A DNA stretch of 64,000 bases from a virus: IMG/VR virus record IMGVR_UViG_3300028800_000061, positions 32,001-96,000 of that record; one strand, 5' to 3'. The notes under the pieces are model-generated. The model saw only the letters and a program-made list of their open reading frames with translations. It was not told where the DNA came from and did no database searches. The position numbers and the translations under genes were made by a program. This document shows, one piece after another, positions 7,044-9,466 of this stretch. Positions within the stretch are counted from its first letter, which is position 1. Every line of letters begins with the position of its first letter.

Positions 7044-7169
7044 CGGAGCACCACCCTTCGGGGGGAATGTGCCTGGCACACCTTGATAACTCCACAGCGG
7101 AAACACCATGATTAACCGTTCCCGTCGCGCGGCGTGGCCAGCCGGCCGGTCGCGCGACGGGAACACCAT

Positions 7170-7243
7170 GGGGCTTTAGCGCAGCCCGGTAGCGCGCCTC
7201 GTTCGCATCGAGGAGGCCGCCGGTTCGAATCCGGCAAGCTCCA
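7170..7243 (+). tRNA. tRNA-Ala(CGC)
   Basis: cloverleaf; G3:U70; loop TT-CGC-AT. Confidence 0.95.
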
Positions 7244-7321
7244 CGGCGGGAAGTTGAGGGTTCGAATCCCTCCTGGTCCACGCATTGGGCTGGTACCTCA
7301 ATTGGCAGAGGCCCGCATCTT
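7244..7321 (+). ncRNA. circularly permuted tRNA-like element (YrlA-like topology)
   Basis: T arm and 3' acceptor strand precede 5' acceptor strand and D arm; GCGGG/CCCGC closes the ends. Confidence 0.75.
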
Positions 7322-7394
7322 GGGACTGTAGCTCAGCTGGTAGAGCACCTGCTCGGCAGGCAGGGGGTCCGCGGTTCAAATCCGCGCAGTTCCA
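7322..7394 (+). tRNA. tRNA-Ala(GGC), C33
   Basis: cloverleaf; G3:U70; loop TC-GGC-AG. Confidence 0.92.
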
Positions 7395-9247: not shown

Positions 9248-9395
9248 CAGGGAGACCGGCAGAGACGCCCTGTCCTGGCCAGGACAGGGCGTGCGATACC
9301 GGAACTGTCTCCCAGGTCCCGGCCAGGAGATGGCCACCTGGTCAAGGAAGCCAAGTCCTGTATCATGGCGCTACGGTCATCAAACCTGTTGACTG

Positions 9396-9466
9396 CGGCG
9401 CCGGCGGGATTCGAACCCACACCCAAACCATACGACTGGCATGCTCATCCATTGAGCTACGGCGCC
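9396..9466 (-). pseudogene. degenerate tRNA antisense to the array (isotype undetermined)
   Basis: intact acceptor, D and T arms; 6-nt anticodon loop GTCGTA. Confidence 0.7.

Follow-up and report, generated by a model that had tools for sequence, protein, structure and literature searches.

The DNA examined here is a stretch of 64,000 nucleotides from a soil phage, bases 32001–96000 of the record IMGVR_UViG_3300028800_000061; we call this whole stretch the window, and positions are window positions unless a locus is named. The genome to which it belongs (G000) is a 159,823-bp IMG/VR virus record, 98% complete and 66% G+C, found in rhizosphere metagenomes. ARAGORN reports 37 tRNA genes in the window, all in one co-oriented array, and no terminator-like site was found between 6600 and 8100. 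Within that interval two tRNA-Ala genes, with anticodons CGC and GGC, stand 78 nt apart (entries 1 and 13, table 1), and it is this spacer that concerns us. The first-pass annotation, made from the letters alone, described it as a circularly permuted tRNA mimic without an anticodon. An identical copy occurs in a second rhizosphere sample, so that no micro-diversity is seen there. One X2 contig runs from 7243 straight to 7322 and so omits precisely the element; on one side, however, it extends for only 25 nt, at 80% likeness, and it may derive from tandem tRNAs of a different organism, so it was left out of account.

What does the spacer encode? Read from its 5' end, it presents the parts of a tRNA in the order 3' half, linker, 5' half: the acceptor strands are joined by a short loop and the open ends lie where the anticodon would be (entries 3–12, table 1). 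Every segment lies where the first-pass annotation had placed it. The minimum-free-energy (MFE) structure computed with RNAfold is exactly this permuted four-way junction and accounts for 66% of the ensemble. When 7287–7321 is set ahead of 7244–7280, ARAGORN recognizes the re-permuted sequence as a complete cloverleaf tRNA of 72 nt. The native sequence, 7244–7321, which has neither an open acceptor end nor a 7-nt anticodon loop, receives no tRNA call from ARAGORN or from the Rfam tRNA model (RF00005). A scanner written for the permuted layout gave the element its maximum score, 21, and five block-shuffled copies of the 160-kb genome contained no match with this score.

The tertiary-contact nucleotides of a tRNA are in place: U8, A14, G18G19, A21, the T loop UUCGAAU, G53:C61 and A15:U48. 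Within the D arm, A14, G18G19 and A21 are accompanied by a C10:G25 pair, and U48 (7255) with A15 (7301) could form a Levitt pair. The acceptor helix is of 7 bp; G1–C72, G2–C71, G3:U70 and C4–G69, followed by A73, constitute the identity set of tRNA-Ala. An eighth pair, between U7286 and A7280, is possible; four of the five known sequences allow it. We conclude that 7244–7321 contains a permuted, anticodon-less cloverleaf of T–acceptor–D topology, with the G3:U70 pair that had been proposed for it, far beyond what chance would supply.

Table 1. The permuted element, its segments and flanking genes (entries 1–13, window positions) and its four orthologues (entries 14–17, positions within the named locus).
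Entry	Feature	Position	Strand	Basis or remarks
1	Upstream tRNA-Ala(CGC)	7170..7243	+	ARAGORN; 66.7 bits with Rfam tRNA; no encoded CCA; discriminator A7243
2	Whole element, 78 nt, permuted anticodon-less tRNA-Ala-like; occupies the entire spacer	7244..7321	+	Fold, ARAGORN, layout scan, orthologues
3	5' lead CG	7244..7245	+	Alignment; C then G or A in 5/5 orthologues
4	Closing stem GCGGG, equivalent to 3' strand of anticodon stem; pairs with 7312–7316	7246..7250	+	Fold, covariation
5	Variable loop AAGTT	7251..7255	+	Alignment
6	T arm GAGGG / TTCGAAT / CCCTC	7256..7272	+	Rfam alignment, fold; 100% paired, 2 covarying pairs
7	Acceptor 3' strand CTGGTCC (7273–7279; U70 = 7276) and discriminator-equivalent A7280 (A73)	7273..7280	+	ARAGORN, fold, covariation
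8	Loop CGCATT sealing the acceptor helix	7281..7286	+	Fold, RNAalifold
9	Acceptor 5' strand GGGCTGG (G3 = 7289, G3:U70)	7287..7293	+	ARAGORN, covariation
10	U8 A9, then D arm (7296–7311) CCTC / AATTGGCA / GAGG	7294..7311	+	ARAGORN, fold, covariation
11	Closing stem CCCGC, equivalent to 5' strand of anticodon stem; nucleotide 26 absent	7312..7316	+	ARAGORN, fold, covariation
12	3' tail ATCTT, doubles as 5' leader of the next tRNA	7317..7321	+	Alignment; orthologues AUCU, AUUU or AUCUA
13	Downstream tRNA-Ala(GGC)	7322..7394	+	ARAGORN; 63.2 bits with Rfam tRNA
14	Orthologue in G004 (155-kb phage)	L056 274–348		Between Leu(CAG) and Leu(CAA)
15	Orthologue in G005 (149-kb phage)	L072 12185–12261		Between Ala(GGC) and Ala(CGC)
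16	Orthologue in a metagenome contig	L133 3509–3584		Between Ala(CGC) and Pro(UGG)
17	Orthologue in a 605-kb contig of an Actinomycetota metagenome-assembled genome	L350 7091–7168	-	Between a tRNA-Ala(UGC)-like gene and Pro(CGG)

Has this structure been conserved? Orthologues were sought by pattern scans, and all four (entries 14–17, table 1) were first found with patterns that fix G1–C4 and G69–A73. Each lies in a high-GC tRNA array of phage type, and in G005, L133 and L350 this array shows synteny with that of the window (Trp, Ala, Ala, Pro, Phe, Gly, Lys and so on). The first-pass annotation had proposed to look for covariation among related arrays, and it exists: in the alignment of the five sequences 104 of 105 cells hold standard pairs, and six pairs have changed on both sides; the closing stem accounts for three (of its five pairs), the T stem for two and the D stem for one. 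At 15:48 three sequences have A:U, and G004 has G:C. None of 500 shuffles attained the observed values of pairing and covariation, slid registers pair at 30–51%, and RNAalifold, given the five orthologues, independently returned the identical fold. The module of G000 is 78–82% identical to its orthologues, against medians of 66–73% for the genuine tRNAs that the same genomes share; between G000 and G004 its identity is above that of all 16 shared tRNAs. About 17 of its positions are fixed by the search pattern, but when these are allowed for the identity is still about 77%. The element is conserved, with compensatory changes that point to selection on its structure, and it is therefore very unlikely to be a scar.

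Which known RNA does it most resemble? The topology had been likened to that of the bacterial Y RNA YrlA, and the Rfam YrlA model (RF02553) indeed aligns its positions ~23–86 to 7246–7316 of the native sequence, at 33.4 bits (cmscan). The alignment covers the T arm, the acceptor hairpin, the D arm and 4 bp of the closing stem; the outer, Ro-binding helices of the model fall only on neighbouring tRNA sequence. The gathering score that Rfam sets is 69 bits, but the YrlAs of Ro-encoding actinophages themselves score just 33–47 bits, so that for phage sequences of the family this threshold is a poor guide. Junctions between ordinary tRNAs reach up to 29 bits, and neither the gathering threshold nor the MFE z-score discriminates here. 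In common with YrlA (RF02553; Chen et al. 2014, PMC4201824; Wang et al. 2018, 10.1101/312249) the element has a variable region, a T arm, a loop-closed acceptor stem, a D arm and a stem where the anticodon arm would be, together with the same tertiary-contact nucleotides, the covarying 15:48 included; the YrlA family, too, occurs in actinophages among tRNA genes. On the other hand the element, at 78 nt in total, is bounded by tRNAs, has no 5'/3' stem or motif for Ro60, resides in a phage without a Ro60 gene, and is closer in sequence to genuine tRNA-Ala(UGC) than to the Ro-linked YrlA cores.

The published Ro60/Rsr site of YrlA is GNCGAAN0-1G, near the 5' end, on a long stem that the 5' and 3' ends form together. 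BLAST with the element found unannotated permuted modules in Gordonia and Streptomyces phages, and every one of the phages examined has a gene for a Ro-like protein. The Ro-linked modules of BRock, Kenrey and pSt2308 have the acceptor set of the element (G1–C4, G69–A73), and Ro-linked phage modules carry, ~30 nt upstream of the core, GATGCGWAG or GGGTCGRA, a loose form of the published motif. At the element we found neither a Ro-binding stem nor a GNCGAA-like motif, as the first-pass annotation had remarked of the helix; the neighbouring tRNAs, which begin 2 nt away on the upstream side and 5 nt away on the downstream side, leave no room for such a stem. The absence of Ro/Rsr genes from the window also holds and extends to the rest of the genome: no TROVE (Pfam) match occurs in the window or in the whole of G000, the Ro proteins of BRock and Jay2Jay retrieve nothing from G000, and G000 contains no RtcB. 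TROVE matches are likewise absent from G004, G005 and G006 (a 133-kb phage). Linkage to a Ro60 orthologue (~4 kb away, same strand), a trait of the YrlA family, is not found at the element. The element thus resembles the tRNA-like domain of YrlA but lacks two defining traits of the family, the Ro-binding module and the Ro linkage.

We think it probable that 7244–7321 is the gene of a free-standing, alanine-type tRNA mimic in permuted order, which acts through host factors that handle tRNA. The element would be co-transcribed with the tRNA array; 3' processing of tRNA-Ala(CGC) after A7243 would create its 5' end, and the cut of RNase P at the 5' end of tRNA-Ala(GGC) its 3' end. The enzymes that mature the neighbouring tRNAs would in this way release an RNA of ~78 nt, as the first-pass annotation had suggested, and the layout of the orthologues is consistent with such a release. 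All five modules start 1–2 nt past the discriminator of the upstream tRNA and end 4–5 nt short of the next tRNA; in the 2.5 Mb of loci examined, these five alone have tRNAs abutting both ends. Non-decoding, tRNA-like RNAs excised by tRNA-processing enzymes are known in mascRNA and the MEN-beta RNA (Wilusz et al. 2008, as cited in 10.1101/312249), but these are eukaryotic and unpermuted, and have an open acceptor end to which CCA is added. Once released, the RNA of the phage is expected to fold into the L shape of a tRNA and to act via host proteins that read the elbow and the acceptor arm rather than the anticodon. It could serve as bait for tRNA-directed defence enzymes, as an alanyl carrier or as a competitor for a tRNA-binding factor.

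Other permuted modules without Ro60 exist, one pair of them in G000 itself. Outside the window, at 152869–153088 of G000 on the minus strand (L005 1525–1744), two tandem permuted tRNA-like modules lie a few bases past a gene for a 243-aa DUF7873 protein (G000 153142–153873). The better of these twins scores 49.6 bits with the Rfam YrlA model, no Ro gene is nearby, and PAPS-reductase-like, GATase and cupin genes follow downstream. The order DUF7873 then twin modules recurs in G004. The module of the window differs from these pairs in that it is single and not directly downstream of the DUF7873 gene, from which it lies 114 kb away in G000; G005 has the solo module but no DUF7873, so the solo module is independent of DUF7873 and has no fixed protein partner. 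In the literature searched, no account was found of permuted mimics that stand alone, without Ro, in the tRNA arrays of phages, nor any of DUF7873.

Might the element act otherwise than through the general tRNA machinery? Phage tRNA arrays have been linked to escape from tRNA-targeting defences, and in a closed form, as the uncut 78-nt hairpin, the RNA might titrate a host defence enzyme that attacks tRNAs, including one that reads elbow or acceptor. Its place in a phage tRNA array, its intact elbow and tight acceptor loop, and the finding of the module solely in phage-type arrays all agree with this. Yet a stoichiometric bait is a poor match for a catalytic toxin, and the sequence gives no hint of which enzyme it would be aimed at; we regard such a titration as unlikely. 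The version put forward in the first-pass annotation, a decoy for anticodon nucleases, is weak for an RNA without an anticodon loop, the very part that these nucleases recognize, and is itself unlikely. A Y-type RNA with a protein partner, whether a YrlA that works with the Ro60 of the host or an extra ligand of the phage DUF7873 protein, is in our judgement distinctly unlikely. The core fits the Rfam YrlA model at the level of the Ro-encoding actinophage YrlAs, its acceptor and D loop are like those of the modules of BRock, Kenrey and pSt2308, and G000 and G004 both have the DUF7873 gene with its twins. However, tRNAs at both ends leave no space for a Ro-binding stem, the GNCGAA-like motif is missing, and G005 has the module with neither Ro nor DUF7873. 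Identity of the core to Ro-linked modules (46–50 of 65 positions) and to DUF7873-linked modules (42–48 of 65) is also below its identity to genuine tRNA-Ala(UGC).

Two further readings dispense with a mimic altogether. In the permuted tRNA genes known from algae, Cyanidioschyzon merolae among them, and from archaea (Soma et al. 2007, as cited in 10.1101/312249), the 3' half likewise precedes the 5' half and a short linker closes the acceptor stem; their ends are ligated to form a conserved 7-nt anticodon loop, and a decoding tRNA results. Were the element such a gene, its ends would be ligated to form an anticodon loop and its acceptor loop opened, giving in G000 a decoding tRNA with the anticodon CUU and alanine identity. 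ARAGORN does read the re-permuted sequence as tRNA(CUU) with U33, and the ends predicted for RNase Z and RNase P would suit an ATP-dependent ligase, since these enzymes leave 5'-phosphate and 3'-hydroxyl ends that such a ligase can join. But the 7-nt loop AUCUUCG foreseen by the first-pass annotation is not conserved: the joined loops of the five orthologues would be AUCUUCG, AUUUCG, AUCUCA, AUCUCA and AUCUACG (7, 6, 6, 6 and 7 nt), with the triplets CUU, CUA or none, and with C37 where a purine is expected. The bulge–helix–bulge ends of the algal and archaeal genes are missing at the element, RtcB is absent from G000 and PF09414 ligases from G000, G004 and G005, and a tRNA for a Lys codon that bore alanine would mistranslate. 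Judged by its sequence, the element is not a decoding permuted tRNA, and we give ligation to a decoding form next to no credence. Could it instead be a non-functional scar, formed when a tandem pair of tRNA-Ala copies was stripped of its outer halves, so that the surviving 3' half and 5' half merely mimic a permuted tRNA? Ordinary tRNA–tRNA junctions do approach the YrlA score of the element, as noted above, and BLAST matches in Rctr197k and in Bacillus phage C30-3 proved to be of this kind. The Ala block of G000 is, moreover, rearranged relative to G001 and G003, and in L324 (~111–217, on the reverse strand of that locus) a segment like a 5' half (acceptor-like strand, TA, D arm, CCGC, ATTT) comes directly after a tRNA-Ala(UGC), a possible intermediate. 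Against this, the five orthologues retain 99% of their pairs, double compensatory changes number six, and in conservation the module equals or surpasses real tRNAs. Both breaks fall within the anticodon loop and so leave all four helices intact. The module is, finally, unlike its present neighbours: the Ala tRNAs of G000 match it at 44–45 of 65 core positions. Its halves do not trace to two separate decayed tRNAs, but both are closest to one genuine type, the tRNA-Ala(UGC) of other phages (57 and 53 of 65 core positions). The scar reading is largely refuted, and we consider it very improbable. We take the element to be, in all likelihood, a permuted derivative of tRNA-Ala(UGC) that belongs to the architectural class of the alanine-type YrlA Y RNAs.

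If the free-standing mimic carries the alanine identity set, could it also be charged? AlaRS (alanyl-tRNA synthetase) charges any helix with G3:U70, whatever the anticodon. More speculatively, RNase P might nick the released RNA at 7286/7287, a site predicted from that in the YrlA of M. smegmatis (PMC4201824), after which trimming, CCA addition and charging with alanine could follow. In vivo RNase P cleaves the M. smegmatis RNA at the 5' end of its 7-bp acceptor stem, and the RNA is trimmed and CCA-tailed (PMC4201824; 10.1101/312249). Its tRNA-like stem and maturation are those envisaged here; what differs is that Rsr binds it by way of a long stem, that its gene lies beside rsr, and that the loop of the element is only 6–7 nt and can close to 4–5. 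The same acceptor pattern, applied to bacterial genomes of many phyla (L332–L411), returned 60 true permuted modules among 80 loci. Forty of these 60 have a Ro homologue within 8 kb. Directly after A73, inside the acceptor loop, 25 of the 60 encode CCA, ten UCA and five ACA, and CCA was no part of the search pattern. The encoded CCA suggests that these bacterial modules are opened by RNase P to yield a ready-made CCA end. Given the charging rule of AlaRS and the maturation of the M. smegmatis RNA, opening followed by alanylation is a realistic prospect for the class. They resemble the element in G1G2G3:U70, C4:G69 and A73, then a short loop and G+1, the identity set of tRNA-Ala. The differences are that two thirds of them are adjacent to Ro and 25/60 encode CCA, whereas the solo module reads ACGCA (ACACG in L350) and has no Ro. 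For the element, we regard opening at 7286/7287, 3' trimming, CCA-tailing and a two-piece product that AlaRS could charge via G3:U70 and A73 as possible but somewhat doubtful. The whole chain, in which phages of this lineage would make a partner-free, anticodon-less alanine acceptor by nick, CCA and AlaRS charging, to be used as a non-decoding alanyl donor or sink, or as bait for toxins that modify the acceptor or CCA end, is rather unlikely as a single proposal.

Several observations weigh against a conserved alanine-type mimic that is opened and charged. The folding energy is ordinary for so GC-rich a composition (z = -1.2). Only five sequences are known, and G3:U70, though present in 5/5, is invariant in a sample biased by ascertainment; a pattern free of acceptor constraints re-found only G004 and G005. 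In a sample of phage modules unbiased with respect to the acceptor, a 7-bp acceptor stem was found in 19/19 but G3:U70 in 0/19, so that alanine identity is the trait of a subclass and not general. Pairing of A73 with U(-1) would reduce the loop to 4–5 nt, tighter than the 7–9-nt, CCA-bearing loops of the cellular alanine-type YrlAs, and the element encodes no CCA, which together with the tight loop makes opening by RNase P uncertain. The relatives G001 and G003 have syntenic arrays without the module, which must therefore be dispensable.

Why might such an RNA matter? No function is known for the tRNA-like domain of YrlA, which studies have invariably treated as an accessory to the Ro60 particle. 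Here the domain stands alone, without a Ro60 handle, in phages without Ro60, and is placed in a tRNA operon as a tRNA gene would be. Since it is conserved on its own at least as well as real tRNAs, we argue that the tRNA-like body does something in its own right. At 78 nt it is a minimal substrate with which to ask which host factors act on it: RNase P, the CCA-adding enzyme, AlaRS, EF-Tu, modification enzymes or defence nucleases. With the alanine identity set, and with ACCA encoded in many cellular relatives, the old question whether Y-type tRNA mimics are aminoacylated becomes directly testable; were the charging proposal true, the frequent ACCA of the Ro-linked bacterial alanine-type YrlAs would mean that aminoacylation is widespread and overlooked in this subclass of Y RNAs. 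The known contents of phage tRNA arrays would also gain non-decoding members.

Two other roles were considered and set aside. The tRNA-like domain of transfer-messenger RNA (tmRNA), two-piece forms included, likewise has alanine identity (G3:U70) without an anticodon, but the element differs in its complete D arm and its closing stem, and it has neither a tag reading frame nor pseudoknots. A two-piece tmRNA was rejected, as only 35 nt lie between the acceptor 5' strand and the next tRNA, leaving no space for a tag frame, and ARAGORN finds no tmRNA in the window. A two-piece (permuted) tmRNA does occur in a low-GC phage (L013 1388–1913, minus strand; IMGVR_UViG_3300033073_000366), and 23 consecutive nt of its acceptor piece, comprising the T arm and the acceptor 3' strand, are identical to those of the element. 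Nor is the module a substitute for a missing tRNA-Ala(UGC): in G000 and G004 the two occur side by side in the same genome, and in G005 and L133 only the module is present. In L350 a tRNA-Ala(UGC)-like gene, not called by ARAGORN, lies ~80 nt upstream of the module on the reverse strand; its anticodon arm, T arm and acceptor stem are normal and its D arm aberrant.

The wider scans were of uneven yield. A 17-base pattern run against metagenomes gave, among the matches listed, one real locus in 80, the rest being nearly all chance matches in coding DNA; a specific 27-base pattern had no match in bacterial genomes. Relatives found through the PAPS-reductase-like protein upstream had no tRNAs near that gene, and their arrays were located elsewhere, by Rfam matches.

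Further permuted modules came to light in the related arrays. G005 (L330 3127–3199) and L133 (5128–5198) share a second solo module, non-alanine and 2 nt past tRNA-Gln(CUG); the two are positional orthologues with different stem sequences, and G000 has only an 11-nt spacer there. In G003 there are three non-alanine modules on the minus strand (L048 15295–15367, 15223–15292 and 13154–13223), which start right after tRNA-Pro(GGG), where two stand in tandem, and after tRNA-Leu(GAG); the place that the module takes in the window is occupied by none of the three. In G006, which lacks DUF7873 as well as Ro, the 130-nt spacer between tRNA-Val(UAC) and tRNA-Ile(UAU) (L073 2424–2553) holds an alanine-type permuted module and an extra unit like a T arm and a D arm, all enclosed by one outer stem.

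In the window, a long, near-perfect, GC-rich inverted repeat (7117–7165) lies between tRNA-Trp and tRNA-Ala(CGC), preceded by a weak promoter-like site at 7083–7112. At 9395–9466, on the minus strand and so opposite in orientation to the array, ARAGORN reports an antisense 'tRNA-???' with a 2-nt anticodon; its acceptor stem, D arm and T arm are good and its anticodon arm is abnormal. ARAGORN also reads the tRNAs at L048 11116–11189 and L330 4932–5010 with the anticodons CUA and UCA, which makes them candidate amber and opal suppressors.

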